64,000 nucleotides of DNA from Candidatus Multivoradales bacterium (GCA_965223855.1 CBDCXM010000009.1:1664001-1728000); one strand, 5' to 3'; shown: positions 348 through 54,735, counted from the stretch's first letter. Notes: generated by a model not told the origin, from the letters alone. Numbers and translations: made by a program.

Positions 348-884
348 CTAGCCGGCGGTCGAGAGCGTGACCGCCTGCTGGACCGGCAGGCCGTCGACGG
401 CGCCGAGCGGCGTCCAAACCTCGACCTCTTCCTCGACCTGCTCACCGCCGCGCTCGACGGTCTCGGTCTCCATCGTGATGTCCATCCACTGCGCCTCGGT
501 GAGCGCGACCTCGACGACGAACTTGCCGCCGGCCGGCATCTCCGGCCTCGAGGTCTCGGTCGTCCAGAAGTTGTAGAGCGGAATGTCGAGTTCGCCGCCC
601 GCCGGCACCGGATACATGAAGAGCTGGTTGCCGTAGACGGTCAGGTCCTGACCGTTGAGGGTGACGCGGAAACCGAGTTGGGAAGCGATCTTGTCGCCGT
701 CGTTGCGCACCTTGACGGTCAGCTTGCACAGCGTGTCCGCCGCCGGAGTCTCCGGATCGACGGTGATCCCGGTCACGGAGAGCTGGGACGCGGCGGTGGC
801 CTCGTCCTGAGCGGCCAGTGGAGCGGTCTGGAGCGCGAGCAGCACGATGCCGGCCGCGAGGGCGGAGCGCAGGAAGATCTTCAT
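348..884 (-). CDS. Secreted hypothetical protein, possible CARDB/Ig-like domain
   Basis: Signal peptide MKIFLRSALAAGIVLLALQTAPLAA, then LSVTGITVDP...LTVKVRNDG (CARDB-like pattern). The upstream part of ORF 348..1760 is the antisense shadow of the next gene. Confidence 0.7.
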   Translation of the reverse strand: MKIFLRSALAAGIVLLALQTAPLAAQDEATAASQLSVTGITVDPETPAADTLCKLTVKVRNDGDKIASQLGFRVTLNGQDLTVYGNQLFMYPVPAGGELDIPLYNFWTTETSRPEMPAGGKFVVEVALTEAQWMDITMETETVERGGEQVEEEVEVWTPLGAVDGLPVQQAVTLSTAG

Positions 885-965
885 CGTCGGGATCATAGCG
901 GATGAGTGGGAGACAATAGGAATCGGGCGACGCGTCGCGATGTTGACGCCCTTCGAGGTCGAGCG

Positions 966-1826
966 ATGAGAACCGACGACGATCGAACTAGATTCCAGCG
1001 GTACGGCTGGCCGGCCATGGCGGTGGCCGGCGGAGTCTCCGCGCTCGGCTATCTGCGCAACCGCTTTCAGCACGGCTCGATGTTCCATCCCGACCGCTAC
1101 CCGAACGGGATCTGGAACCCGGCGCCCTACGGGCTCGACGTCGACGACAGCTGGTTCACCACCACGGACGGGGTCGATCTGCACGGCTGGTGGATCCCGC
1201 ACAAGCGGGCGCGAGCGACGCTGCTCTTCTGCCACGGCAACAGCGGCAGCATCGCCCATCAGATCGGCGTGCTGCGTCACCTGCGTCGCCTGCGGGTCAA
1301 CCTCTTCGCTTTCGACTATCGCGGCTACGGCCGCAGCTCCGGGTCGCCGAGCGAGAAGGGGCTCTACCTTGATGTCCGAGCGGCCCATGCTTTCGTCACC
1401 GGTGAGCTGGCGAGGCCGGTGGAGGAGGTGGTGCTCTTCGGCCACTCCCTCGGCGGAGCGGTGGCGATCGACGGCGCCGTCGATCTTCCGGTGGCGGGGC
1501 TCGTCGCCCAGGCGACTTTCACCGACGTGCGGGACGCGGCGCGCGCCTTCTACCCGACGCTCCCCGTGCATTGGATAGCCCGCGCCCGCTTCCGCTCGAT
1601 CGACAAGGTCGGCACCCTCGCGATGCCGAAGCTCTTCATTCACGGCGACGCCGACGGCACGCTGCCGCTCGAATTCGGAGAGCGGCTGTACGAAGCGGCG
1701 GCAGAGCCGAAAGAGTTCTACCGCGTAGCCGGAGCCGGCCACAACGACGTGCACCGGCACGGGGGTCTCGGCTACCTGCGCCGGCTCTCGCGGTTCGTCA
1801 GGAACTGCCGGGCGGCAGCTCTGTGA
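966..1826 (+). CDS. Alpha/beta hydrolase (Bem46/ABHD17-like)
   Basis: HGNSG oxyanion motif, DYRGYGRS, GHSLGG nucleophile elbow, HGDAD acid, GAGHND His. Confidence 0.9.
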   Translation: MRTDDDRTRFQRYGWPAMAVAGGVSALGYLRNRFQHGSMFHPDRYPNGIWNPAPYGLDVDDSWFTTTDGVDLHGWWIPHKRARATLLFCHGNSGSIAHQIGVLRHLRRLRVNLFAFDYRGYGRSSGSPSEKGLYLDVRAAHAFVTGELARPVEEVVLFGHSLGGAVAIDGAVDLPVAGLVAQATFTDVRDAARAFYPTLPVHWIARARFRSIDKVGTLAMPKLFIHGDADGTLPLEFGERLYEAAAEPKEFYRVAGAGHNDVHRHGGLGYLRRLSRFVRNCRAAAL

Positions 1827-1880
1827 TTGGAGTCACAGACCGCTCGAGGTGATTTCGCCACAATTCCGGCGGAGCCTTCG

Positions 1881-2387
1881 ATGGTCTGTCGTTTTCGCTT
1901 CTACTGCGCTCTCCTTGCGATCGGCGTGCTCGCCTCCTGCTCGACAGGCGGCGACCGCGGTACGCCGACCTCGCCAGGCAATACGCCGACGGTAGCCCAG
2001 GTCGAGTTCGACTCGTTCGCGCTCGTGAACGTCGCCCGCTCCGACAACGGCGTGCAGCCACAGCTCGTGTACGACGAGGCCCTCGCCGCGGTCGCGAGGT
2101 CCCACAGCGAGCAGATGCGGGATCTCGACTTCTTCGGCCACTCGGACGACCAGGGCCGCACAGTCGGCGGGCGGCTCACTGATGCCGGCATCGGCTTCAG
2201 CTCGGCCGGCGAGAACCTCGCCCGCACGACCAACATCGCCAACCCGGCCGTGTGGGCACACGATCAGCTGATGGCGAGCGACGAGCACCGCCCCAACATC
2301 CTCAACGAGGACTATCTACGCATCGGCGTCGGAGTGGCGCGCGCAGGGACGACGTACTGGATCACCCAGGTCTTCGTGGCCCCCTGA
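1881..2387 (+). CDS. CAP/SCP domain lipoprotein
   Basis: Lipobox VLASC; ARSHS..M..LDFFGH, GENLA, SDEHRPNIL, IGVGVA, YWITQVF. Confidence 0.9.
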   Translation: MVCRFRFYCALLAIGVLASCSTGGDRGTPTSPGNTPTVAQVEFDSFALVNVARSDNGVQPQLVYDEALAAVARSHSEQMRDLDFFGHSDDQGRTVGGRLTDAGIGFSSAGENLARTTNIANPAVWAHDQLMASDEHRPNILNEDYLRIGVGVARAGTTYWITQVFVAP

Positions 2388-2424
2388 TCGCCGCCCGAGC
2401 GTCCCGCCACGCCGGGTGCCGCAG

Positions 2425-3558
2425 TCAGTCGTGCAGGGCGGGGCCCGCCAGCCCGAGATCTTCGTAGACCGCGTTCGTCAGGGCGTCGAAGCGCCGACGA
2501 TGAACGTCGTCACCCGGTGCCCCGTTGACGATGCAGACGACGACCACCTGCTCTTCCGGGTCGGCGAAGGCGACCGCGGTGCGATGGCCGCCGTGACCGA
2601 AGGCGCGCGGCGAGGCGTGATCGCCGAAGCCGTACGGGAGGCCGGGGAGGTCGTGCCAGCGTGAGTTGACGATCACGCCGAGCCCCCAATCGAGCGGGTA
2701 GCGGAAGGTGTGGTCGAGCAGGCCGACCCGATGCCGGGCAGAAAGCGCCGCCACCGTCTGACGGCCGAGCAGCCGCGTGCCGTCGAGCGCGCCGCCGGCA
2801 AGCAGCGCCGACCAGAAGCGCGCGAGTTGGCCGACCGGGCCGATGCCGCCTCCGCCCGGTGAGCAGGCGGTGGTGTGGGTGCGGTCGGTCCACGGGAGCG
2901 GGGTGAGTTCGGCCCGGTCGTTCGACTCGCCGGCAGGGGAGGCTGTGTCGAAGACCGGCGCGATCCTGCGGCCGTAGCCGTCGTAGTGCTCCCCGGGCAT
3001 GCCGATCCAGCAATCGTCCATGCCGAGGGGGAGGAAGATCTCTTCGCGCACGTAGGTCGGCACCTCGCGGCCGTCGAGGCGTCGAATCAGCTCGCCGAGC
3101 ACGAACCAGCTCGACGACAGGTGATAGCCGGCCTTGCGGCCGGGGGTCCAGCGCGGCTCGAGCTTCATCTGCGCGACGGTGTCGAGGATCTCGGACCAGG
3201 GGCGCTCGGGGAAGCCGAGGCCGAGCTTGCGGATACCCCCGGTGTGGGTCAGCAGGTGCCGGACGGTGACCGCTTCTTTGCCCCCGGCGGCGAAGTCGGG
3301 CCAGATCGCGGCGACCGGTGTGTCGAGCTCGAGGAGACCGCGCTCCCACAGCTGAGCGATCGCCACGGCGACGACCGGCTTGGTGACCGACAGCCACAAC
3401 ATCAGGTGGTCGCGCGTCAACGCCTCGCCCGGGCGCGCCTCTCCGACAGCGAGATCGGCGACGGTCTCGCCGTCTCGCAGAACGCACAGCTGGCCGCCGA
3501 GGTGGAGCCCGGTCGCGATGCCGGACTCGAGAGCAGCGGTCGCGGCAGGCAGCGTCAT
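2425..3558 (-). CDS. Serine hydrolase, beta-lactamase class C/esterase family
   Basis: SVTK (SxxK), LLTHTGG, PGRKAGYH, FGHGG. Confidence 0.9.
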   Translation of the reverse strand: MTLPAATAALESGIATGLHLGGQLCVLRDGETVADLAVGEARPGEALTRDHLMLWLSVTKPVVAVAIAQLWERGLLELDTPVAAIWPDFAAGGKEAVTVRHLLTHTGGIRKLGLGFPERPWSEILDTVAQMKLEPRWTPGRKAGYHLSSSWFVLGELIRRLDGREVPTYVREEIFLPLGMDDCWIGMPGEHYDGYGRRIAPVFDTASPAGESNDRAELTPLPWTDRTHTTACSPGGGGIGPVGQLARFWSALLAGGALDGTRLLGRQTVAALSARHRVGLLDHTFRYPLDWGLGVIVNSRWHDLPGLPYGFGDHASPRAFGHGGHRTAVAFADPEEQVVVVCIVNGAPGDDVHRRRFDALTNAVYEDLGLAGPALHD

Positions 3559-3590
3559 CAGGCGGCGAGGATACCTATAATCTCCCTCCC

Positions 3591-4409
3591 ATGCCGCGCT
3601 TCCTCGCCGCTGCCGTGCAGCTCACCTCGACCTCGGACGCCGACGCCAACTGGCGCTCTGTGAAGGAGCTCGTCGCCCGGGCGGCGAGCCACGGCGCCCG
3701 CTTCGTAGCGACGCCCGAGAACACCAACTATCTCGGCCCGCACGAGGAGAAGGTGCGTCTCGCCGAGACGCTCGAAGGCCCGACCTGCTCGCGCTTCACC
3801 GAGCTGGCGGCCAAGCACGGCCTCCACCTGCTGCTCGGCTCCTTCAACGAGCGCAGCCCCGACCCGAACCGCTGCTACAACACCTCCGTCCTCTTCGGCC
3901 CCGACGGCCGGATCGTCGCCACCTACCGCAAGATCCATCTGTTCGACATCGATCTCTCCGACGACGTCCGCTTCCAGGAGTCGGCGACGGTGATGCCGGG
4001 CACAGAGGTGGTGGTGGGCGAGACGAAGCTCGGCGCCTTCGGCCTGTCGATCTGCTACGACCTGCGCTTCGGCGAGCTCTACCGCGCCTTGACTGCCCGG
4101 GGCGCGACGATCCTCACCGTCCCCTCCGCCTTCACCGCCCGCACCGGCAAGGCGCACTGGCTGCCACTCCTCCAGGCGCGCGCGATCGAGAACCAGTGCT
4201 GGCTCGTCGCCCCGGCGCAGAGCGGCCGCCACGACGACGACGGCCTGCGCGAAAGCCACGGTCACTCGCTGATCCTCGATCCCTGGGGGCAGGTCGTGGC
4301 GATGGCGCCCGAAGGGCCGGGGTTGGCGCTGGCGGAGATCGACACCGCACGGGTCGCGGACGTGCGCAGGGCGATGCCGGTGGCCGAGCATCGGCGGCTG
4401 CCGGGCTAG
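3591..4409 (+). CDS. Carbon-nitrogen hydrolase (Nit1/deaminated glutathione amidase-like)
   Basis: Glu-Lys-Cys triad motifs TPEN, YRKIHLFD, ICYDLRF; also ARAIENQ and GHSLILDPWG. Confidence 0.92.
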   Translation: MPRFLAAAVQLTSTSDADANWRSVKELVARAASHGARFVATPENTNYLGPHEEKVRLAETLEGPTCSRFTELAAKHGLHLLLGSFNERSPDPNRCYNTSVLFGPDGRIVATYRKIHLFDIDLSDDVRFQESATVMPGTEVVVGETKLGAFGLSICYDLRFGELYRALTARGATILTVPSAFTARTGKAHWLPLLQARAIENQCWLVAPAQSGRHDDDGLRESHGHSLILDPWGQVVAMAPEGPGLALAEIDTARVADVRRAMPVAEHRRLPG

Positions 4410-4886: not shown

Positions 4887-5609
4887 ATGCGAAAGAGTCG
4901 CGAGATCGATCTGCACCCCGAGCAGGACTACTGGGCGGCGCGGGCACGAAGCGCCACCCTCGAGCGGCGGGAAGAGCGCCGCAGGCTTCAGTGGGCCGCC
5001 CTCGGAACCCTCCTTCTGCACGGTGCGCTCCTCATGCTGCGCCTGCCCGAGGGCGGCCCCTCCTTGCCACCGGAGCCGGAGCGGGTGGTCTTCGCCGTCC
5101 GCAACCACGTGCTGCGGCCCGAGCCGGAGCCGGAACCGGTGCCGGAGGTGAGGCCGGAGAGACCGGACCCGCCGACCCCCACGGTGATCGTTCCGGGGCC
5201 GCCGGAGATCGATCCGGAACCGGTGGAGACGGCGCCGGAGCCGATTCCGCTCGACCTGCCGGTCGTGGCGATGGACCCGATTCCAGTGCCTGCCGATCCG
5301 CCGCCGTCGATCGAGGCCGGGCCGGTGCGATGGGACGGCTCTCTGACGAAGCCGCAGCAGGAGTACGCGCCGTTGCCGCACTACACCGACATGGCACGTC
5401 GGGCGCGGCGGCAGGGGAAGGTGATCGTCGAAGCGGTGATCGAGGCCGACGGCCGGGTGACGGACGTCAGAGTGCTCCGCGGCCTCGGGTTCGGTCTCGA
5501 CGAATCGGCCGTGGCCACGGTGTCGACGTGGCGCTTCCGGCCGGCGATGCGCGGTGGCCGGCCGGTGGCGGTGATCTACACGCTGGTGATCAACTTCCGG
5601 CTGCAGTAG
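4887..5609 (+). CDS. tonB: TonB family energy transducer
   Basis: AGGAGG RBS; TM segment with LLLHG, Pro/Glu-rich spacer, TonB_C motif YTDMARRARRQGKVIVEAVI...GLGFGLDESA...WRFRPA. Confidence 0.88.
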   Translation: MRKSREIDLHPEQDYWAARARSATLERREERRRLQWAALGTLLLHGALLMLRLPEGGPSLPPEPERVVFAVRNHVLRPEPEPEPVPEVRPERPDPPTPTVIVPGPPEIDPEPVETAPEPIPLDLPVVAMDPIPVPADPPPSIEAGPVRWDGSLTKPQQEYAPLPHYTDMARRARRQGKVIVEAVIEADGRVTDVRVLRGLGFGLDESAVATVSTWRFRPAMRGGRPVAVIYTLVINFRLQ

Positions 5610-5636
5610 CCGACTGGGCTCCGGGTTCCCGGGTGC

Positions 5637-6785
5637 TCAGCGCCCCATCAGCCCGGCCAGCAGATCGACCCCTTCCCGCAGCACCTCGGGGGGCGCCGCA
5701 GTGAAGCAGAGCCGCACGTGGGTCGGGTAGGGGCCGAAACTGGTGCCGGGGGAGAGGAAGAGACCGCGATCCGCGGCATCTTCGAGGAAGCCGGCGAGTC
5801 CCCGGTCGTCGAGGTGGTCGGCGACGTCGGGGAACAGGAAGGCGCTGCCGGCGGGCGGCTCGAGCCCGAGGCGCTCCGCGGCGTAGCGGCCGAGTTCGGC
5901 GTACTTTGAACGCGCCTCGTCTAGCCAGGTGTCACCGAGCTCGAGCGCCTTCAGGGCCGCGACCTGCGAGGCGGTCGGGGTGGAGTAGAAGGTGTGGGTG
6001 CTGACCTTGCGCAGCTCGCTCATCACCTCGGGCGGACCGACGATGTAGCCGCAGCGGTTGCCCGCCATGCCGTAGGCCTTCGAGAACGAGTGGCACGAGA
6101 AGGTCCGTTCGGGGGCGAACGCTCTCGCGTAGGTGTGGTCCCCTTCGTAGACGTAGTCCTCGTACACCTCGTCGGAGACGAGCCACAGGCCGTGCTCGCG
6201 GCACCAGCCGGCGAGCGCCTCGATCCAGTCGCGTTCGAGCAGCCGGCCGGTCGGGTTGTTGGGGGTGTTGAGGTAGAGGGCGATGGTGCGCTCGGTCCGG
6301 AGGGCCTCGACCGCTGCGACGGCCTCTTCGGTCGAGCCGACGTCGCCGACGAACGGCACGTCGACGGGCGTGCCGCCGAACGAACGGACGATGCCGGCGA
6401 TCAGCGGCCAGTAGGGAGCTAGCAGCAGGACCTCGTCGCCGGGCTCGACGATCGCCCCAGCCATGGCGCCGAGGGCACCGGTCGCGCCGGCTGCGACGAG
6501 TACCTGCCCGGGCTCGGTGGCGACACCGGCGCGCTCGGCGACGTGCTCGGCGACAGCGGTCCGCAGGTCGGGTCGCCCCTGTGGCTGCGCGTAGCGGTGC
6601 AGCCCCGGCCAGTCCTGCTCGGAGAGGTCTTCCATCCGGCAGCCGACGGCGGGCTCCATCCAGGTGTCGCCGACGTGAAACGGGTAGATCGTCCCCTCGA
6701 AGGTCGACATCTTTCGCGCCAGAGCGGTGTAGACCGAGCCGGGCATCGAGCGAACGTTGGCGGAGACTTGCGGCGGTCGCGGCAT
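5637..6785 (-). CDS. PLP-dependent aminotransferase class I/II
   Basis: NTPNNPTG, SDEVY, SFSKAYGMAGNRCGY (PLP lysine). Confidence 0.92.
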   Translation of the reverse strand: MPRPPQVSANVRSMPGSVYTALARKMSTFEGTIYPFHVGDTWMEPAVGCRMEDLSEQDWPGLHRYAQPQGRPDLRTAVAEHVAERAGVATEPGQVLVAAGATGALGAMAGAIVEPGDEVLLLAPYWPLIAGIVRSFGGTPVDVPFVGDVGSTEEAVAAVEALRTERTIALYLNTPNNPTGRLLERDWIEALAGWCREHGLWLVSDEVYEDYVYEGDHTYARAFAPERTFSCHSFSKAYGMAGNRCGYIVGPPEVMSELRKVSTHTFYSTPTASQVAALKALELGDTWLDEARSKYAELGRYAAERLGLEPPAGSAFLFPDVADHLDDRGLAGFLEDAADRGLFLSPGTSFGPYPTHVRLCFTAAPPEVLREGVDLLAGLMGR

Positions 6786-46626: not shown

Positions 46627-47814
46627 ATGCACGGCTCGCCCGGGTCGAACGACGGCGTGATCGACAGCTCGACCGACGGCCAGGTGCTCGCCCGGGCCTG
46701 GCAGCAGTGGTGCCGCGGGCCGTGGTGGCTGCACGTCGTCGCCGTCGCCTCCCTGGCCGCTCTGGCGGCGCTGCGCAGCTGGCCTGTCGTCGCGAACCTC
46801 TCCGAGCCGCTGGGAGACGAGGTCTGTTACCTGCGCGCCTTCGAGAGCGTGCTCGCCGGCGAGTCGCCGTTCGAGCAGCCGTGCTACGTGTACCCGTCCG
46901 TGGTCGCCCTGACGGGCGGCCTCGGCTTCGAACTCCTCGGCAGGGATGCCACGGTGGCGCTGATGCGCGCTCTCAACCACGTCGGCCTCGGATTCGCCGC
47001 GTGGATGGCGGTCGGCTGGCTGCCGGCCTCGTGGATTCGCCGCGCCGCCGGCGCCGCCGCCTTCGTGGCTCTCGCACCTCAGGCGGTCTACTCGGTGCGC
47101 TTCGGCAACCTGTCGATGCTGGCGGTCGGCCTGATCCTGCTGGCGCTGGCCTGTGGGTCACGGCGGCCGCTCACCGGAGGGGGGCTGCTCGGTGCGAGCA
47201 TCGCCGTCAAGCCGCTGGCACCGATGGTGGCGTTGGGGTGGCTCCTGGCGGGCCCGACCCGAGCGTTGCGCCTCGCCGGGGGCGTCGCGCTCGGAGCGGC
47301 GGCGCTGCTGGTGCTGGCGTTCCCCCATCTCGACGACCTGCTGGCGCTCCATCGCACCGACAAGGTGGTGCGCACGGTGACCTTCCATCGCTTCCCGCCG
47401 CTGCTCGGCCTCGAGACGAGTGCGCTGTGGATCTCGTTGCCGCTCGCGCTCGGGTTCCTCTGGTGGTTGGTCAGAAGCGAGCCGGGACCGGGACAGCGAC
47501 TGGCGCTGCTGACCGTCGCCTGCCTGGCGGTGACCCCGGTGGTGTGGAGTCACACCCTGGTGCTGGCGTTGCCGCTCGAAGTGATGGTCGGCACCGTCGC
47601 GTGGCGTCGCTGGTCGCGACGCAGGGCTGCCGTCGCCGGCGCCTGGATCGAGCCGGCGTTCGTGGCCGTGGCCGTGGTGGCGATCCAGTTCGCCGCCGGA
47701 GCCGGAGGAGTCGACGATCGGGCTGTGGCGCTGCAACTCGTGGCAGGGGCGGTCCCGGGCTTGGCGCCGATCTTCCTCGTCGCCTACCTGTTGCGCGCGA
47801 CGGATCGGTTCTGA
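46627..47814 (+). CDS. GT-C fold membrane glycosyltransferase (family 87/DUF2029-like)
   Basis: D..CY..A...G.SP...YVYP loop, FGNLS, IAVKP, PVVWSH; multiple TM segments. Confidence 0.75.
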   Translation: MHGSPGSNDGVIDSSTDGQVLARAWQQWCRGPWWLHVVAVASLAALAALRSWPVVANLSEPLGDEVCYLRAFESVLAGESPFEQPCYVYPSVVALTGGLGFELLGRDATVALMRALNHVGLGFAAWMAVGWLPASWIRRAAGAAAFVALAPQAVYSVRFGNLSMLAVGLILLALACGSRRPLTGGGLLGASIAVKPLAPMVALGWLLAGPTRALRLAGGVALGAAALLVLAFPHLDDLLALHRTDKVVRTVTFHRFPPLLGLETSALWISLPLALGFLWWLVRSEPGPGQRLALLTVACLAVTPVVWSHTLVLALPLEVMVGTVAWRRWSRRRAAVAGAWIEPAFVAVAVVAIQFAAGAGGVDDRAVALQLVAGAVPGLAPIFLVAYLLRATDRF

Positions 47815-47929
47815 GGGTCGGGTTTCGGGGTCCGGAACGGGCTCGGCGCGGGTCCGGAATGCGGCCAGAGCCCTATGCTAAGGTCCACCGGATCGAGTCG
47901 TGCCAATCGAGGGGCGAGGAGGAGGTTTC

Positions 47930-48775
47930 ATGGCGAAGAAGAAGACGTTCCGGATCAAGGATCTGATGGTCACCGTGCTGCCGAAGCACGTCAGGGTCGC
48001 CCAGTGGCACTGTCTCCACGCGACGGTCTGCCGCCTCCCGAGTCGCGACGCGGACTTCGACGACTACGACGCCCAGGACTGTGGCCCGCCGGGCACCGCG
48101 ATCACCAGCCCCGGGGGTCACTGCCGGGAGGGGGTGAACACCCTCTTCCCATGTGATCCGGGCGAGGCAACGGTGACGGTCTGGTGCAACGACATTACCG
48201 ACTGCGACGGCGCCAACCTCTCCTACGACGTGGACTGCAAGGAGGGCGAGACTTCGATCGATCCCTGCGACGCGAGAGTCGCGCCGACCAATTGCCAGGG
48301 CGTGGTCGCCTCCGACGATGCCTGTGACCAGGGCCAGGGCAGTGACTGTTTCTGGGGAGTCGCGTCGGACTGTGAGGGCGATGGCGGCAGCGAGTGCCCG
48401 GCGCTGGCGGGTTCCGAGTGCGACGACGAGCCCGGTGCCGACGGTTCCCAGTGCCCCGCGCTCGAGGGGTCGCAGTGCGACGACGGCGGAGAGGGTGCGG
48501 CCTCCGGGTGCACCCAGCTCGACGGCTCGGCCGGCGAGATCTGCGGCATCACCGAGCCGTCGGCCTGTGGCGGCGAGAGCGCGATCGGCCTCAACTTTTC
48601 GCGTGTGAACGGCCTCGACGCACTGAAACGCGAACTACGTCAGGCGCTCAAGCAGGTCGAGTCGTTCGAGAAGGCGAAGTATCTCGAGGTGGCGGGACGC
48701 ACGCCGCTCGACGAGGAGGAGCGCCAGCGCCTCGCCCGCAGGGTCACGGAGAACTTCACCGGCGACGATCGGTGA
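47930..48775 (+). CDS. Putative giant lanthipeptide-type RiPP precursor (281 aa, 20 Cys)
   Basis: Strong SD AGGAGGAGG; basic N-terminus MAKKKTFRIKDLMVTVLP; acidic Cys/Ser/Thr-periodic core (C28-S217); Cys-free helical tail; directly upstream of lyase-like and kinase-LanC genes. Confidence 0.8.
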   Translation: MAKKKTFRIKDLMVTVLPKHVRVAQWHCLHATVCRLPSRDADFDDYDAQDCGPPGTAITSPGGHCREGVNTLFPCDPGEATVTVWCNDITDCDGANLSYDVDCKEGETSIDPCDARVAPTNCQGVVASDDACDQGQGSDCFWGVASDCEGDGGSECPALAGSECDDEPGADGSQCPALEGSQCDDGGEGAASGCTQLDGSAGEICGITEPSACGGESAIGLNFSRVNGLDALKRELRQALKQVESFEKAKYLEVAGRTPLDEEERQRLARRVTENFTGDDR

Positions 48776-48810
48776 GGGCGCCGTCAGGAGCCTGAGCCGG
48801 CGATCCTCGG

Positions 48811-49995
48811 GTGGCCGGCACGCTGACTCAGCTGCGTGAGTTGGCCGGGGTCGGTCTGCGGGCCGGCCGTGGCTACACACTGCGTTCCCTGGAGGAGATC
48901 AGCTCCGAGGAGCGTGAGGCGCTCGGTGCCGCCGCCGACGATCCGGCGGCGGTGGCGTTGTTGCTTCCCTCCGAGGGGAGCGGGCTGACGGTGAAACTGC
49001 TCGACTCGAGGACAGCGGAACTGTTCCGCTCGCTCGAGTCGTCGGTCTCGCGGAGTGAGCTCGCCGAGGGCCCGCAGGCGATCCAGGTCGCCCGGCTGAT
49101 CGCAGACGGCGTACTGGAGATCGAAACCTCCGACGGGTTCGTCGGTGGGCCGGCGTCGCTCCCCTTTCTCCTGGATCCGGTTCCGGATCCCGACGCCATG
49201 TCGGGGCGGGCGGCCCGCCTTGCCGTCGCGGCGGTCCGCTACGGTGCGAGTCTGGGGAAACTGCCCGCGCCCCTGCTGGCGATGCGGCTCTATCACTTCC
49301 ATCGTCTTCCCGAGTCGCGCGGATGGAGGCGGCGCCTGCCCGACGACGAGGCGGTGGATGCCTATCTCGGGATCAGCGAGGGAGAGACCGGACGACTGCT
49401 CGAGAGCACATGGATACCGATCGCCCGTGACGAGCCGAACCCCTACTGGCGGATCTGGCGGCATCGCAATCCACCGCCGGTGAGGCGACGCAGAAGGGCT
49501 ACCTGGAAGCTGTACGTGAGTCCGCTGCTCACCGACCTCCCCTCCCTTCTGCCGACAGTGGTTCGCGTCCTCGGCGAGCTTCAGGTGCCGAACTTCAAGA
49601 TCGGGCGCGGCCTCGGCGGGCTGCTGCGACCCGACAAGATCGTCTCCTACTACTGGTCGAAGGAGCATGCCGAGCGCACCCTCCGGCGCCTGGCCGCCGA
49701 GTTCGAGGGAGTCGCGGCCCACGGAGTGCCCTTCGCGGCGGTTCCGTCGGGAAACGGGTTGATCTCTCTCGGCGTCGATCCGCCGCGCGAAGAACATGTC
49801 GCCCCATGGCTCGAAGGGGCGAGCTACCGGCTGTGGGTCTGTCGCTTCCTCGCCGCGGCGCTGCGTCCGTGCGCGGCGCGGGGGATGCCGGTCGACGATG
49901 CCGCCCGCTTCGCTCTCTCGCGACTGCACCTCGAGGGTGTCGATGTGGAAAGCTGGACGCCCGACCCTGAGCGACTGGACTTCCTCGATGACTGA
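48811..49995 (+). CDS. Stand-alone phospho-Ser/Thr lyase-like protein (HopA1/OspF-type) with N-terminal RRE-like domain
   Basis: TWKLYVSP, FKIG and RPDKIVSY resemble lanthipeptide lyase motifs (WKLHVS / FK / K.I..Y); overlaps the kinase-LanC gene by 8 nt. Start uncertain. Confidence 0.7.
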   Translation: MAGTLTQLRELAGVGLRAGRGYTLRSLEEISSEEREALGAAADDPAAVALLLPSEGSGLTVKLLDSRTAELFRSLESSVSRSELAEGPQAIQVARLIADGVLEIETSDGFVGGPASLPFLLDPVPDPDAMSGRAARLAVAAVRYGASLGKLPAPLLAMRLYHFHRLPESRGWRRRLPDDEAVDAYLGISEGETGRLLESTWIPIARDEPNPYWRIWRHRNPPPVRRRRRATWKLYVSPLLTDLPSLLPTVVRVLGELQVPNFKIGRGLGGLLRPDKIVSYYWSKEHAERTLRRLAAEFEGVAAHGVPFAAVPSGNGLISLGVDPPREEHVAPWLEGASYRLWVCRFLAAALRPCAARGMPVDDAARFALSRLHLEGVDVESWTPDPERLDFLDD

Positions 49996-52342
49996 AGCGC
50001 TCGATCTGACCGCCGCGTTCGTTCTGCCGCGCCACGCACATCTGACCCCGATCGAAGAGCTTCCGGACGACCAGCGCGAGCAGGTCGGCGGCGAGCCTGG
50101 CGAGTCGGCCCTGACCCTCGCCTTCGGGCGGGCGGGCTCGAAGGTCGTGGACGGACCGACCGCAGAGCTGCTGACCCTGTTTCGAGAGCCGAGGACGATC
50201 GTCGAAGCGGTGATCGAGTTCGCGTCGGCCGAAGGTCTCGATCCCGAGGAGACCCTCGAGGCGGCCTACCCGGTGCTGTCGCGGCTTCTGGCGGCAGGCT
50301 ATCTGGTTCCGGCGGACTCGCCGGCCGCCGATCCGCCGCAACCGCGTTTCTCCCAGGGGGACCGTGTCGGGTCGTGGGAGGTCCGACGATGCATCCGGAT
50401 GATGCTCGATACGGAGATCTATCTCGCGCGCGGCGAAGAGGGTCGGGCAGCGATCAAGGTCGCGAGGGAGGCCGACCGATCTCACCTCGAGAGACGGTTC
50501 GACCGCGAGCGGCGGATCTACGAACTCCTCGATGGACTCGAAGTGGTGCCGAGGTTCCTGGGTAGCGGCGAGGTCGAAGGCAGGCCGTACCTCGTTCTGG
50601 AGTGGTGCGCCGGCCACCCCTCCAACTCGCCTCACGTCCGGTGGGGAGCGACTCGCCAGGCGCATCTCGAGTTCGCGGCTCGGACGCTCGAGGCCTATCG
50701 GCGCCTTCACGAACGCGGCGTGCTGCATGGTGACGTCCACGCCGAGAACCTGATGATCGCGTCCGACGGCGAGGTCCGGCTGATCGACTTCGGTGCCGCG
50801 AAGGTGCTGGACGCCTCCGACGAGCTCGGGCGGGCTCCGAGAATGGGAGTCGCCTACTACTACGAACCGGAGTACGCGGCCGCACTCGCCGCCGGTCGAC
50901 GCGGCCCGCCGGTCACCCTCGAAAGCGAGCAATATCGCATCGCGGCCGTTCTCTACAGCCTCCTGACGGACGCCCACTACCTGGACTTCAGGCTCGAACA
51001 GAGCGAGATGCTCGAGGCGATTCAGACAGACCCGCCGCTGCCGTTCACCCATCACGGTGTAGCGGGTCAGGAGGCTGTCGAGCGTGTCCTGGCGAGAGCG
51101 CTCGAGAAGAGCCCGGAACGGCGGTTCCCCTCCACTTCCGACTTCTGCGAGGCGTTCGCCGAAGCGCTGGACGAAACCCCTGCCGCTCCGGGCCTTTCGG
51201 CCGGACTCCTCGATCAGGCGGAGGGCGTCGTCGCCGAGCTGCTGGAGAACGCGGCCCCGGACGGGGTCTGGGTGCGGAAGGGGCTCGCCGCCGCTCCCCG
51301 CGCCTCGATCAACACGGGAGCTGCGGGCGTCGCGGTCGCGCTCGCCCGGATCGCCGAGATCCGCGATGATCCGGTGGCGCTGGCGACGGCCGACGTCTGG
51401 GTGGCGCGAGCGTTGAGCGATCTGGGCGACCACGAGGCGTTCTTCGGGCCCGACGGCGAGCTGCGCGAAGACATCGTCGAGGAGGTCTCGCTGTTCCACT
51501 ACGAGCCCGGGCTTCATGTCGCCGACGCAATCGTTGCGCAGCTGCTCGGAGATCGGCAGCGAGCCTCGGTGGCCGCTCGTCGCTTCATCCGCTCCTGCTC
51601 GCGCGAGTGGGAGAACCCCGATCTGACGCTCGGTCGGACGGGTGCCCTCATCGGATCCGCCATTCTCGTCGACAGACTCGGCGCCGATGAGTCCCTCCTC
51701 TCCTTTGGCGCCGAAGTCGAGTCGAGCGTCTGGGACTCGCTTCGGCACAAGTCGCCGATCGCCGGGCCCGAAAGCTCGTTCAACCTCGGCCTGGCTCACG
51801 GCTGGGCGGGGGTTCTCTTCGCCTCGATGCAGTGGAGTCGCGTCTCCGGGCTGCCGCTTCGCGACGAAGTGGAAGAGCGCCTCGACCAGCTCGCCGCACT
51901 GGCACAACCTCACGGCCGTGGAGTGCGCTGGCCGTGGTACCTCAAGGGGGAGAACCGAGAGCCTGTCTACATGCCGGGCTGGTGCAGCGGTGCGACCGGC
52001 CACGCGTTGCTGTGGGCGGAGGCGGCGCGGTCGTTCGACCGCGACGCCTATCTCGGACTGGCGAGCGGGTCGGCCTGGTCGGCGTGGAGAACTCCGTTCG
52101 GCTCCGATCACCTGTGCTGCGGTGCTGCGGGTGGCGCCTTCGCGATGCTGCGGCTTCATGGAACGACCCTCGAGCCGGATTGGAAGGTCCGGGCGCAGCG
52201 TCTCTTCCAGAAGTCCCTCGTACCTCCGGCGGAAGAGGCGAACTCGCCCGCCAGCCTCTATCGGGGGCGAACGGGAATCGCCCTGCTTGCCGCCGAACTC
52301 GAGGGGGACGCAGCGGCGCGGATGCCGATGCTCGAAGTCTGA
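49988..52342 (+). CDS. Ser/Thr kinase-LanC cyclase fusion (lanthionine synthetase) with N-terminal RRE-like domain
   Basis: Kinase motifs AAIKV, LHGDVHAEN, IDFG, YYEPE; LanC motifs GAAG, GLAHGWAG, WCSG, HLCCG, LYRG..G. No lyase motif seen in the ~125-aa N-terminus. Confidence 0.9.
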   Translation: MTEALDLTAAFVLPRHAHLTPIEELPDDQREQVGGEPGESALTLAFGRAGSKVVDGPTAELLTLFREPRTIVEAVIEFASAEGLDPEETLEAAYPVLSRLLAAGYLVPADSPAADPPQPRFSQGDRVGSWEVRRCIRMMLDTEIYLARGEEGRAAIKVAREADRSHLERRFDRERRIYELLDGLEVVPRFLGSGEVEGRPYLVLEWCAGHPSNSPHVRWGATRQAHLEFAARTLEAYRRLHERGVLHGDVHAENLMIASDGEVRLIDFGAAKVLDASDELGRAPRMGVAYYYEPEYAAALAAGRRGPPVTLESEQYRIAAVLYSLLTDAHYLDFRLEQSEMLEAIQTDPPLPFTHHGVAGQEAVERVLARALEKSPERRFPSTSDFCEAFAEALDETPAAPGLSAGLLDQAEGVVAELLENAAPDGVWVRKGLAAAPRASINTGAAGVAVALARIAEIRDDPVALATADVWVARALSDLGDHEAFFGPDGELREDIVEEVSLFHYEPGLHVADAIVAQLLGDRQRASVAARRFIRSCSREWENPDLTLGRTGALIGSAILVDRLGADESLLSFGAEVESSVWDSLRHKSPIAGPESSFNLGLAHGWAGVLFASMQWSRVSGLPLRDEVEERLDQLAALAQPHGRGVRWPWYLKGENREPVYMPGWCSGATGHALLWAEAARSFDRDAYLGLASGSAWSAWRTPFGSDHLCCGAAGGAFAMLRLHGTTLEPDWKVRAQRLFQKSLVPPAEEANSPASLYRGRTGIALLAAELEGDAAARMPMLEV

Positions 52343-52365
52343 CCGGTCGCGGCGTCCGGTGGCGG

Positions 52366-54735
52366 TCAGGCCCGCTCGGGTACCCAGGCCAGCCCCACGA
52401 GGTGCACTTCGACGTCCGCACGTCGGGGCCGCAGCTCTTCGGTCGTCAGCTCCTGGTGCATCGGGTCGAGGCTCTCGCGCAGGGCGTCGATCTCGCGTTG
52501 CGCCTCGGCGTCGAGCTCCTGGATCTCCGCCTGAATCGCTTCGATGTCCTCTTCGGCGCGATCGACGTCCTGCGAGTCACGCCAGGAGCGGGTGGCGCTG
52601 CGCATCGCGGTACCGGCGTTGCGGCGCACGCTGCGGCCGAGCACGGCACCGAGCAAGGTGGTGCCGATGTTGACGACGGTGTCGAGCTTCACCTGCCGGG
52701 CCTGCTGCTCTTCCTTCTCGCGGCGTTGCTCGGCTTTCCTGAGGCGCTCTTCGAGCTTCTCGATCTGGCCGGCATACTTGTCGCGCAGAGCGTCGAGCCT
52801 GGCGTCGCGCTCCTCGCGGGTGGCGTGCTGCAGTCGAACGCGGAAGTCGCGCTCGCTCTCGCCCGGCTCGGCCACCAGCCCGAACGCTTCGCTCTCCATC
52901 AGCTCGAGCTTGCGGTTGCGGTAGAGCCACTCTGAGAAGTCCTTCGTCCACGCGCTCCACGACTTCGACTGCGCCGCTTCGGACGGTACCGAGGCGAACT
53001 GGGCATCGGCGACCGGCACCTCCTCGAGACGCGAGGCGGGGACGGCGCTCATCTCGACCCGTTCCCAGTCGACCGGTACCGTGCCGTCGGTCAGCGGCGC
53101 GAGCACGGTGAGCTCCTCGGAGGTGTCGATGTCGTGCTTGCGATCGACGAAGTGCACCGTCGCCGCTCCGACGAGCCGGGGTTCGTAGCGCACCGCCGCG
53201 CCAACGGGAAGATCGCGGGCGGGCAGGAAGTACTGCTCGATGTCGGGATCGAGCACCGGTCTAGCGGAGGCGGCCTTCACCGGCGTGGCGGCTGGAGCTT
53301 CGTCGCGCTCACCGCCGGCGGGCCGCCGCCCGTCCATCAACCTTCGGATCTGATCGCGGGTCATCGGCCCGCGCAGGTAGGAGAGTACCCAGCGGGTCTC
53401 GAACACCACCGGGCCGTCGTCATGAACGTTGTGGAGCAGGAACTTGCGCTTGCCGAGACCGGCGAGGGTCTCCTCCATCTCGCCGCGATCGAAGCGCCCG
53501 GCGGCACCGGCGGAGGCTCCCTCGAGACCGTCGAGCACGCGGTTCTTGTCGCGAGCCGTCTGCAGGCGGCCGATGAACCACGAGCCGGTGTTCGAGAGCC
53601 CCTTGTAGTCGAGGTCGACCGGGTTCTGGGTCGCCAGCACGACGCCGACGCCGTGCGCCCTTGCCTGTTTGAGGAGCGTCAGCAGCGGGCGCTTCGAGGG
53701 TGGATTGGCGACCGGCGGCATGTAGCCGAAGATCTCGTCCATGTAGACGAGGGCGCGCAGGCTGCTGGTGCCCGGCTGCGACCGGGTCCAACCGAGGACC
53801 TGGTTGAGCAGGAGCGAGACGAAGAACATCCGCTCCGAGTCGTCGAGGTGAGCGATCGAGAAGATCGCCACTCGCGGTTTGCCGGTGTCGGTGTAGAGGA
53901 GGCTCTGGACGTCGAGCGACTCCCCCTCCATCCAGGCTGAGAAGCCGGGAGCGGCGAGCAGGTTGTTGATCGTCATCGCCAGCTTGAACCGCTCCGAGGC
54001 AGGGTAGAAGGCGTCGAGATCGATCACACCCACCTTGTCGATCGGCGGATCCTGGAGGCTCTGGATGACCGCCGGCAGATCGAGATCGCGACCCTCGCGC
54101 CATTCGTGGTCGAGGATCGTCGACAGCAGGATGTGCTCGCGGCTCTGGAGGGCGTCCGCTTCGATGCCTACGAAGCCCAGGAGGCTCGAGACCGTCGTGC
54201 TGATGCGGTCGCCGAAGAGCTCGGCGTCTTCGATCACCTCACGCGGTGGGGCGCGGAAGGAGTCGAGGATCGACACCGGGATTCCGGCCGACGAACCGGG
54301 AGTGTAGATCGCGAAATCGGCGGCCTCGCGCAGTCGCCGGATGCGATCACCGTCCTGTCCCCATGAAGCGAGCCCCTTGCGCCACAGCTCGGCCTGGCCG
54401 GCCGCATACTCGGCTGGCGTCAACCCGTCCTTGCGGGCGTCGTCGGCGTTGATCCACGGCTCGAAGTCCTCCGGAGCGAGGTCCGGGAAGGTCAGGAGCA
54501 GGTTGCCGAGATCGCCCTTCGGGTCGATGACGATCGCCGGGACGCCGTCGATCGCCGCCTCCTCGAGCAGACCGATGCACAGCCCGGTCTTGCCGCTGCC
54601 GGTCATGCCGACGCATACCGCGTGCGTCGTCAGGTCCTTCGAGTCGTAGAGCAGCGGCACCCCGGCCGACTCGCCCGACCCGAGGTCGTGCGGCCGGCCG
54701 AGGAAGAACGCCCCCAGCTTTTCGTAGTCCTTCAA
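52366..54735 (-). CDS. HerA/FtsK-like P-loop ATPase (DUF87/DUF853-type) with C-terminal coiled coil
   Basis: THAVCVGMTGSGKT, IDPKGD, YMDE, LATQNPVD. Confidence 0.88.
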   Translation of the reverse strand: MKDYEKLGAFFLGRPHDLGSGESAGVPLLYDSKDLTTHAVCVGMTGSGKTGLCIGLLEEAAIDGVPAIVIDPKGDLGNLLLTFPDLAPEDFEPWINADDARKDGLTPAEYAAGQAELWRKGLASWGQDGDRIRRLREAADFAIYTPGSSAGIPVSILDSFRAPPREVIEDAELFGDRISTTVSSLLGFVGIEADALQSREHILLSTILDHEWREGRDLDLPAVIQSLQDPPIDKVGVIDLDAFYPASERFKLAMTINNLLAAPGFSAWMEGESLDVQSLLYTDTGKPRVAIFSIAHLDDSERMFFVSLLLNQVLGWTRSQPGTSSLRALVYMDEIFGYMPPVANPPSKRPLLTLLKQARAHGVGVVLATQNPVDLDYKGLSNTGSWFIGRLQTARDKNRVLDGLEGASAGAAGRFDRGEMEETLAGLGKRKFLLHNVHDDGPVVFETRWVLSYLRGPMTRDQIRRLMDGRRPAGGERDEAPAATPVKAASARPVLDPDIEQYFLPARDLPVGAAVRYEPRLVGAATVHFVDRKHDIDTSEELTVLAPLTDGTVPVDWERVEMSAVPASRLEEVPVADAQFASVPSEAAQSKSWSAWTKDFSEWLYRNRKLELMESEAFGLVAEPGESERDFRVRLQHATREERDARLDALRDKYAGQIEKLEERLRKAEQRREKEEQQARQVKLDTVVNIGTTLLGAVLGRSVRRNAGTAMRSATRSWRDSQDVDRAEEDIEAIQAEIQELDAEAQREIDALRESLDPMHQELTTEELRPRRADVEVHLVGLAWVPERA

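Follow-up and report, generated by a model that had tools for sequence, protein, structure and literature searches.

Among the described lanthipeptide synthetases, the class IV LanL enzymes such as VenL and SgbL carry an OspF/HopA1-superfamily lyase as their own N-terminal domain, followed in the same polypeptide by a Pkinase-type Ser/Thr kinase and a zinc-type LanC cyclase with a Cys-Cys-His triad, and they dehydrate by phosphorylation and subsequent elimination (PMC8341899; papers are cited here by PubMed Central identifier, as represented in the excerpts available). The class III synthetase LanKC is a single chain as well, its cyclase being described without zinc ligands (PMC7268733, in excerpt). 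Class V pairs of LanK and LanY (LxmKY, CaoKY) use a stand-alone HopA1-type lyase together with a separate kinase of the APH type (PF01636), and their characterised pathways often have no known cyclase in the excerpts of PMC10604976 and PMC11186320. The former further states that no class II to V enzyme has an identifiable recognition element for peptides synthesised ribosomally and then modified post-translationally (RiPP recognition element, RRE). In class I, LanB enzymes (NisB, MibB, MadB) do have a PqqD-like RRE fused to the modifying enzyme, and they use glutamyl-tRNA chemistry for dehydration in place of phosphorylation and elimination. Precursors predicted in one survey measure 29-100 residues (PMC11251773). 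In this study, we analysed a three-gene locus in a stretch of 64,000 nucleotides (nt) from Candidatus Multivoradales bacterium (GCA_965223855.1 CBDCXM010000009.1:1664001-1728000), referred to as the window, with positions counted from its first letter. The locus, at 47930-52342 on the + strand, consists of three tightly spaced open reading frames (ORFs) of the same direction, here called P0001, P0002 and P0003, and we put the probability at about 0.7 that they form a split lanthionine synthetase of new architecture acting on unusually long precursors, with a chemistry that we infer. The three genes are the following.

47930..48775, + strand: P0001, putative precursor, 281 residues (ORF and translation; ATG start)
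48811..49995, + strand: P0002, predicted RRE and phospho-Ser/Thr lyase, 394 residues (GTG start; AlphaFold2 model with fold matches)
49988..52342, + strand: P0003, predicted RRE-kinase-LanC fusion, 784 residues (Pfam; NCBIfam LanL model from position 184)

P0001 and P0002 are separated by 35 nt and P0002 overlaps P0003 by 8 nt. An earlier note on this DNA had given the three ORFs with these positions, sizes, gap and overlap, all of which the ORF calls bear out. It had also named a failure of the homologous genes to co-occur as grounds for refuting its reading, and we followed this from two sides. A pattern search of 185,579 species genomes returned 415 matches, 365 of which encode a relative of P0002, and the best 80 of these 365, one genome per species, served as the set of lyase loci for the counts below. 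They represent at least 11 phyla: Acidobacteriota (many orders), Chloroflexota, Planctomycetota, Gemmatimonadota, Actinomycetota and Bacillota, as well as Eremiobacterota, Nitrospirota, Pseudomonadota, Armatimonadota and Cyanobacteriota. The cultivable species Bacillus pfraonensis and Amaricoccus macauensis are among the carriers. A kinase-LanC gene follows downstream on the same strand at 80/80 loci, within about 150 nt at 78 of them (median distance near zero; 1,154 nt at L030 and 779 nt at L052). Upstream of the lyase, a same-strand ORF matches a profile of the precursor N-terminal motif (E<0.01) at 68/80 loci, with a single off-target match (E 0.0098) among 17,072 six-frame ORFs. Seven more loci show variant motifs by eye, MPKIRDLGINVIPE-type in L019, L038, L042, L054, L057 and L065 and MSFEFNDL in L070, which brings precursor-like ORFs to about 75 of the 78 assessable loci, L059 and L061 offering too little upstream DNA. 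In the reverse direction, 8 of 401 genomes from the phylum of the window encode the kinase-LanC protein, the window's own included; the lyase lies directly upstream in 7/7 of the others and a precursor-like ORF in 6/7, the contig of the seventh ending 665 nt upstream, and the 80 loci may already include some of these seven genomes. Co-occurrence was hence found from the lyase side and from the kinase-LanC side alike.

The genome that contains the window has one copy each of the lyase gene, the kinase-LanC gene and the precursor motifs. Searched against 66,267 six-frame ORFs of this 4.5-Mb genome, the N-terminal motif profile matched P0001 alone (E 2.3e-5), as did a profile of the conserved C-terminal region (E 0.001), and the arrangement of the trio is therefore more than chance. 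The lyase family as a whole is large and without a name: a collection of 5.8 billion proteins holds at least 135 relatives, all unnamed or 'hypothetical', and 1,601 cluster representatives out of 1.84 billion (1,127 at E<=1e-30) were found at E<=1e-3, clustering being at 50% identity. The trio itself was seen in the 87 loci examined, out of these approximately 1,600 lyase clusters. The best 150 of the 1,601 representatives measure 358-507 residues, and a search for longer forms with lyase, kinase and LanC fused found none, which is weak evidence. Apart from the three genes, no ORF cluster occurs at more than 9 of the 80 loci, so that the module amounts to three genes without a conserved protease, exporter or immunity gene. 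It is also found on plasmids of Paenibacillus peoriae, Bacillus paramycoides and Cupriavidus oxalaticus, where the RefSeq annotation reads 'hypothetical protein' for the lyase and 'lanthionine synthetase LanC family protein' for the fusion. The patchy distribution in the phylum sample, with the kinase-LanC gene in 0 of 3 genomes of the same family as the window's, together with the three plasmids suggests an accessory, horizontally moving unit.

The most readily classified member of the trio is P0003, which the earlier note had described as a fusion of a kinase with a LanC of the zinc type. Two domains follow its N-terminal part:

50432..51127, + strand: Ser/Thr protein kinase domain, P0003 residues 149-380 (Pkinase PF00069, 66 bits)
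51305..52333, + strand: zinc-type LanC cyclase domain, P0003 residues 440-782 (LANC_like PF05147, 91 bits)

The kinase reaches only 42.8 bits with the APH model compared to its Pkinase score. In NCBIfam the best match of P0003 is LanL (NF038150), with 140.6 bits against a cut-off of 650, ahead of LanKC with 99.5 bits. In the LanL alignment, residues 123-739 of P0003 correspond to positions 184-800 of the 851 in the model, and since this begins only at position 184, the lyase part of LanL is missing from P0003. Among 67 family members aligned from related loci, at least 90% retain the kinase residues K157, E174, H247-x-D249-x-H251..N254, D267-x-G269 and E293-P-E295, and the same holds for the cyclase motifs AHGWAG (catalytic His604), WCxG (Cys666) and LCCG (Cys710, Cys711). 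The catalytic kinase residues (K157, D249, N254, D267) are thus conserved, and the WCxG and LCCG motifs identify a zinc-type cyclase whose triad is Cys-Cys-Cys. The description of the fusion therefore stands, with its zinc ligands specified as three cysteines. PADLOC matches of P0003 (PD-T4-6, mad6) were considered as a sign of a defence role, which we did not accept, as these are generic kinase models.

P0002 had been called lyase-like from the sequence, a reading that sequence libraries did not support and that the predicted fold did. The candidate catalytic part is the following.

49180..49968, + strand: P0002 predicted lyase domain, residues 124-386 (HopA1/LxmY fold matches)

No match of P0002 was obtained in Pfam or NCBIfam at E<=1, and likewise none in PADLOC. 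An AlphaFold2 model built from 33 homologues reached a mean predicted local distance difference test score (pLDDT) of 87.2. Searched with Foldseek against the PDB, it retrieved LxmY first, then HopA1, the lyase domains of SalKC, CuvL, ThurKC and PneKC, and OspF/SpvC (E 4e-6 to 8e-3). In structural alignment HopA1 (4rsx) reached Z 15.7 over 226 residues, covering model residues 131-386, and LxmY (9dk3_B) Z 15.6 over 231 residues, with model residues 124-386 placed on chain residues 16-369. CuvL and ThurKC lyase domains followed at Z 13.4-14.3 and OspF/SpvC at Z 9.0-10.6, compared to Z <=7.4 for the next unrelated folds (PII-like, eIF4E, RRM). The clusters nearest to P0002 in the ESM Atlas bear HopA1 (score 0.96), and among the 33 homologues Pfam gives weak matches to RamC_N in 8 (best E 7e-4) and to HopA1 in 2 (best E 0.051). 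A nucleotidyl-cyclase palm fold, raised by a GGDEF profile match (E 0.086) over the GLLRPDK region, was dropped because the fold search gave lyases, with GGDEF structures appearing only at Foldseek E>0.07.

The residues invariant in the 33 lyase sequences include K233, Y235, K263, R273, D275, K276 and Y280. We compared them with residues given for VenL (W50, K51, H53, K80; PMC8341899), SpvC (K104, H106, K136, R148, Y158; PMC9486802) and CaoY (R187, K219, R229, Y236; PMC9486802). Mapped by motif spacing, not by structural superposition, K263 of P0002 with an Arg at +10 and a Tyr at +17 reproduces the spacing of K219, R229 and Y236 in CaoY. The pair W232-K233 resembles W50-K51 of VenL, and such a W-K start is common to class III and IV lyases. 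The excerpt on CaoY describes an enzyme in which the catalytic His of OspF is absent and which is active nonetheless (PMC9486802).

At its N-terminus, each of the two enzymes carries an additional domain, some 120 residues long, which we delimit as follows.

49988..50338, + strand: P0003 N-terminal RRE, residues 1-117 (model of residues 1-132, structural matches)
48847..49170, + strand: P0002 N-terminal RRE-like domain, about residues 13-120 (TigE structural match, profile match to the P0003 N-terminal domain)

The model of P0003 residues 1-132 (pLDDT 88.9) was aligned to 48,161 PDB representatives, of which PqqD matched best (Z 10.3, root-mean-square deviation 2.4, 93/94 residues, P0003 residues 1-108), followed by TigE (Z 10.1), TbiB1 with its leader (9.8) and a lasso-peptide B1 protein (9.2). 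Further down come ThcOx, MibB, MccB, MadB, PbtF-RRE, NisB, LynD, TbtB, CteB and SuiB, with a few chains from outside RiPP systems between them, and Foldseek recovered the same RRE families at E 1.6e-3 and weaker. The domain has the three-strand sheet and three-helix winged helix of the PqqD-like fold. The assignment in P0002 draws on just two comparisons: model residues 13-110 correspond to the N-terminal 86 residues of TigE (Z 6.8), and hhalign relates the domain to that of P0003 with 79% probability (E 1.6e-5, 69 columns; a single BLASTP match at E 0.003). As modelled, the N-terminal domains of both enzymes are PqqD-like RiPP recognition elements, a feature that the earlier note had not noticed. 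Given the statement that class II to V enzymes have no identifiable RRE, the two RREs constitute a real point of difference.

The putative substrate P0001 is without a match in Pfam, NCBIfam or PADLOC, and we divide it into three parts.

47948..47983, + strand: N-terminal recognition motif, P0001 residues 7-18 (FRIKDLMVTVLP; family consensus, profile match)
48011..48568, + strand: acidic Cys/Ser/Thr core, Cys28-Cys213, 186 residues with 20 Cys, 25 Ser/Thr, 26 Asp and 12 Glu
48614..48745, + strand: conserved C-terminal region, P0001 residues 229-272 (family C-terminal profile; L..LK.QL..AL.EVE pattern)

The 20 Cys, from residue 28 to residue 213, follow one another at 6-17, mostly 8-11, residues, and for 18 of them a Ser or Thr stands 2-6 residues before the Cys, with 11 S/T-x-C motifs in total. 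The N-terminal motif belongs to a consensus of 39 aligned precursor N-termini, MxFKxKDLMIxVxP, and the family C-terminal profile aligns the stretch through LDALKRELRQALKQVE (residues 229-244) of a C-terminal region that, from its heptad-like pattern, may be read as a helical hairpin. The combination of an acidic and Cys-rich core could also suit a metallothionein-like metal-binding protein which the kinase merely regulates and in which no thioethers arise, and at a distance of about 4 kb a gene encodes a YbjQ 'putative heavy-metal-binding' protein. However, acidity is not a trait of the other family cores, YbjQ is not conserved as a neighbour, and the reading would not account for why a phospho-lyase and a LanC with intact active site are so strictly coupled to the gene; we regard this reading as extremely improbable.

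At most loci the upstream ORF follows one plan: the N-terminal motif comes first, then a Cys/Ser/Thr-rich core of hypervariable sequence, frequently composed of tandem repeats, and finally a C-terminal helical region with the pattern L..LK.QL..AL.EVE...LE.KL..AL.EL. Due to the hypervariable cores, tblastn with P0001 itself gave matches at 0/80 lyase loci, and the family becomes visible only through motif profiles. Taken over 57 precursors that have 4 or more Cys, the median length is 157 residues (range 62-282, P0001 being at the long end), the median number of Cys 11 (maximum 30) and the median Ser+Thr fraction 0.18 in the cores versus 0.07 in the flanks. This upstream Cys-rich ORF, conserved across the family loci, strengthens the suggestion of the earlier note that the Cys/Ser/Thr-periodic protein of 281 residues is the likely substrate. 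Two tandem precursor-like ORFs with differing cores were observed at L001, L003, L004, L030, L035, L042 and L063. At L008 (5432-5798) the precursor is split over two overlapping frames, an ORF with the N-terminal motif at 5432-5572 and one with the Cys-rich part and C-terminal helix at 5484-5798, which is a frameshift or assembly error. The P. peoriae plasmid NZ_CP011513.1 (L105, 3771-4523) has a 250-residue 'hypothetical protein' upstream of the lyase that contains the whole unit three times, each with a MFRTVDLAANV motif, a short CGITCLASCG core and a helix ...AMKAELKTALDEVEAQE, preceded by an extra helix at the extreme N-terminus; the family C-terminal profile matches this ORF four times (E 7e-24).

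Repetition of this kind bears on the nature of the product, as the long ORFs could be multi-core precursors that undergo the same enzymology and are then cut by a protease encoded elsewhere into small lanthipeptides, with no 'lanthiprotein' as the result. Many family cores are indeed tandem repeats of short Cys/Ser/Thr units, such as GCYASGG in L016, L029 and L034, CTPSPP in L056, L064 and L071, or a repeat of about 19 residues occurring six times in L042, and the P. peoriae plasmid ORF multiplies motif, core and helix as a block. Unclustered lanthipeptide proteases have been described (PMC8960859, in excerpt), and an S8 peptidase gene is located divergently upstream at one plasmid locus. On the other hand, none of the genes around the trio is a conserved protease, with the most frequent further ORF cluster at 9/80 loci, the DNA of P0001 shows just one 9-nt, 2-copy tandem repeat match, its Cys are evenly spaced with no evident cleavage linkers, and the conserved C-terminal region would be left without an obvious role. 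We therefore judge small products cut from a multi-core precursor to be unlikely, and within the reading of the trio as a split synthetase for long precursors we lean slightly towards a large product over small ones, since neither a protease nor an exporter is conserved beside the three genes. The plasmid locus with the peptidase (L106, on the conjugative B. paramycoides plasmid NZ_CP152428.1) has no ORF with the N-terminal motif upstream of the lyase. Its divergent upstream ORF spans 1,326 residues, for which RefSeq calls a shorter coding sequence, 522-4157, an S8 family serine peptidase, and downstream it encodes a hypothetical protein of 595 residues whose C-terminus is weakly like the family helix (E 0.17).

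Compared with the described classes, the trio combines features that are otherwise found apart. With class IV it shares a Pkinase-type kinase followed by a zinc-type LanC, but its lyase is the product of a separate gene, its triad is Cys-Cys-Cys instead of Cys-Cys-His, both of its proteins bear an RRE, and its precursors are several times longer. A single polypeptide with lyase, kinase and cyclase, as in LanL, is thus not what is encoded, nor is a cyclase devoid of zinc ligands as in class III, given that WCxG and LCCG are present and conserved in P0003. With class V it shares a stand-alone lyase of HopA1-like fold, as seen from the LxmY match and the Lys/Arg/Tyr spacing of CaoY, even if P0002 does not reach the HopA1 model of Pfam. 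Here, however, the kinase scores as Pkinase and is fused to LanC, where class V has a separate APH kinase and no LanC, the RRE of P0002 lies outside the LxmY alignment, and in the CaoKY model, as excerpted in PMC9486802, the leader contacts the kinase. Since neither the single chain of classes III and IV nor the APH kinase without LanC of class V is found, the trio falls into none of the named classes, as the earlier note had claimed for classes III/IV and V. Class VI LanKCb, another recently named non-canonical kinase-type synthetase, is set apart by its description as a single enzyme for miniature peptides, reported from streptococci only (He et al. 2023, as cited in PMC12328550, in excerpt), and the trio is not class VI either on this account.

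Its nearest kin are class IV for the kinase-LanC protein and class V LanY/HopA1 for the lyase fold, with a W-K motif like that of classes III and IV. The RREs recall class I LanB, whose members NisB, MibB and MadB all match the P0003 N-terminal domain, and the Cys-Cys-Cys triad recalls ProcM, the class II enzyme of the prochlorosins, which likewise has a CCG motif and hypervariable cores behind a conserved recognition sequence. Unlike the trio, ProcM relies for dehydration on a DUF4135 domain within a single chain, lacks a kinase or lyase as a protein of its own and acts on precursors of usual length. ProcM is not known to have an RRE. Cyclases of the CCC type are described as more reactive and as accepting many substrates (PMC11251773, in excerpt). 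In the full-text literature, subscription journals and supplements aside, we found neither a free lyase paired with a kinase-LanC fusion nor RREs in enzymes of this kind nor natural lanthionine proteins described, and the word 'lanthiprotein' occurs once in the literature searched, in what its excerpt presents as a chemistry paper on MEK1.

We propose a model in which P0001 would be translated with its recognition motif, acidic core and conserved C-terminal region, whereupon the PqqD-like RRE of each enzyme may dock on the precursor, most likely by taking up the N-terminal motif as an additional beta-strand. The P0003 kinase would then phosphorylate Ser and Thr of the core using ATP, and the HopA1/LanY-type lyase P0002 would eliminate the phosphate to give dehydroalanine or dehydrobutyrine, with K263 as the putative base, K233 activating the carbonyl and R273 and Y280 in support. 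Finally, the LanC domain, with His604 and a zinc presumably held by Cys666, Cys710 and Cys711, could add Cys thiols to form (methyl)lanthionine rings, at most 20 in P0001 given its 20 Cys. The last step admits another outcome, in which Ser and Thr are dehydrated but LanC adds an external small thiol or crosslinks other proteins, or in which the substrates lie elsewhere and P0001 acts as a scaffold or regulator. Eukaryotic LanC-type enzymes catalyse intermolecular thiol addition (PMC9934072, in excerpt), the module comes without exporter or protease, and a few family members have only 2 Cys. The confinement of Cys to the cores, where they are strongly enriched, speaks against this, as do the position that the precursor gene holds immediately upstream and the two RREs, which argue for one dedicated leader-bearing substrate, and we consider it very improbable. 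Beyond the reading of a split synthetase for long precursors, it is conceivable, albeit doubtful, that RRE-LanY-type lyase and RRE-Pkinase-LanC with a CCC zinc site make up a further unnamed architecture whose products are 'lanthiproteins' of about 100-280 residues with ten to thirty rings. Such rings would, equally tentatively, be laid out between a short N-terminal tag and the C-terminal helical region.

Several observations weigh against the assignment of the trio as a split lanthionine synthetase. P0002 shows no significant sequence match to any lyase family, and its family profile gave three weak matches against PDB sequences at E<=10 (E 0.086-0.32), none of them a lyase. The invariant Tyr235 of P0002 replaces the His that serves as catalytic acid in OspF and LanL (H106 in SpvC, H53 in VenL). 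No leader protease, exporter or immunity gene adjoins the trio, which is unusual for a lanthipeptide cluster. At 3 of the 78 assessable loci (L045, L060, L066) no precursor-like ORF is found within about 900 nt upstream, and at L023, L035 and L072 the family members have 2 Cys only. Placement of Ser/Thr around Cys is not uniform either: family-wide, enrichment follows the Cys at +1, +3 and +4 (ratios 1.6, 1.6 and 2.4, versus 0.97 at offset -2; the counts stem from related, repetitive sequences and are not independent), unlike the mostly S/T-x-C arrangement in P0001, and ring patterns, if any, are accordingly not uniform. The predicted docking of P0001 residues 1-45 on P0003 residues 1-125 supports the assignment weakly, with ipSAE interface scores of 0.45, 0.45 and 0.46 against 0.07 for the best of 3 controls, with at least 82% of contacts agreeing between runs and a partner pLDDT of at least 51. 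These values are weak by the tool's own calibration, in which 58/80 solved complexes and 2/110 mismatched pairs reach the mark, only 7 of those 80 and both passing mismatches doing so at <=0.60. As solved RRE-leader complexes exist, the docking may reflect likeness to them and not actual binding.

Regarding the gene boundaries, one further feature was read from the sequence.

47916..47925, + strand: Shine-Dalgarno-like GAGGAGGAGG of P0001, ending 4 nt before the ATG at 47930

Its position favours the start of P0001 at 47930 over an upstream GTG at 47900. The start of P0003 at 49988 fits the homologues, as a single tblastn match spans P0003 from residue 12 or before to residue 780 or beyond at 66/80 loci. 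The G+C fraction of the trio region is about 0.69, as elsewhere in the window, and promoter and terminator scans of 47300-52900 gave 0 and 0 sites. Among the sequencing runs listed for 47800-52400, four runs of one study contain this DNA and none is an RNA run. In the window the trio is accompanied by genes for a phosphoenolpyruvate carboxylase, a pyridoxal phosphate enzyme, a membrane protein, a HerA-like ATPase, a dodecin and an extracytoplasmic function sigma factor. Directly 5' of P0001, a 395-residue ORF (46627-47814, + strand) resembles, by eye, a multi-pass membrane protein; neither Pfam nor PADLOC gives a match, and the ORF is not kept beside the module at other loci. Convergent with the end of P0003, 52366-54735 on the - strand encodes a HerA/DUF87-like P-loop ATPase of 789 residues (best PADLOC match mad8, E 5.5e-14), which is not among the neighbours conserved at other loci either. 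A gene of about 1,160-1,200 residues with two Ser/Thr kinase domains and WSPDG-type repeats in its C-terminal part occurs at about 20 of the 80 loci, mostly labelled as Thermoanaerobaculia or Holophagales. It directly precedes the precursor, at about 2-4 kb upstream of the lyase (e.g. L012, L013, L028, L033, L041, L050, L071), and absent at that position in the window; shared ancestry may explain the association.

At present the family is annotated as 'hypothetical protein' and 'LanC family protein', and with no Pfam or NCBIfam model matching P0002, genome mining may overlook it where its rules rely on established lyase or dehydratase models. With a median of 157 and a longest member of 282 residues, and with up to 30 Cys, the precursors stretch the definition of a RiPP. 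If the proposed chemistry is true, a Cys-Cys-Cys cyclase acting on hypervariable cores would be a naturally permissive stapling tool for long polypeptides. Lanthionine biosynthesis would then be modular in these bacteria, lyase and kinase-cyclase being separate and each equipped with its own RRE, and the class III/IV and class V machineries would be linked evolutionarily.

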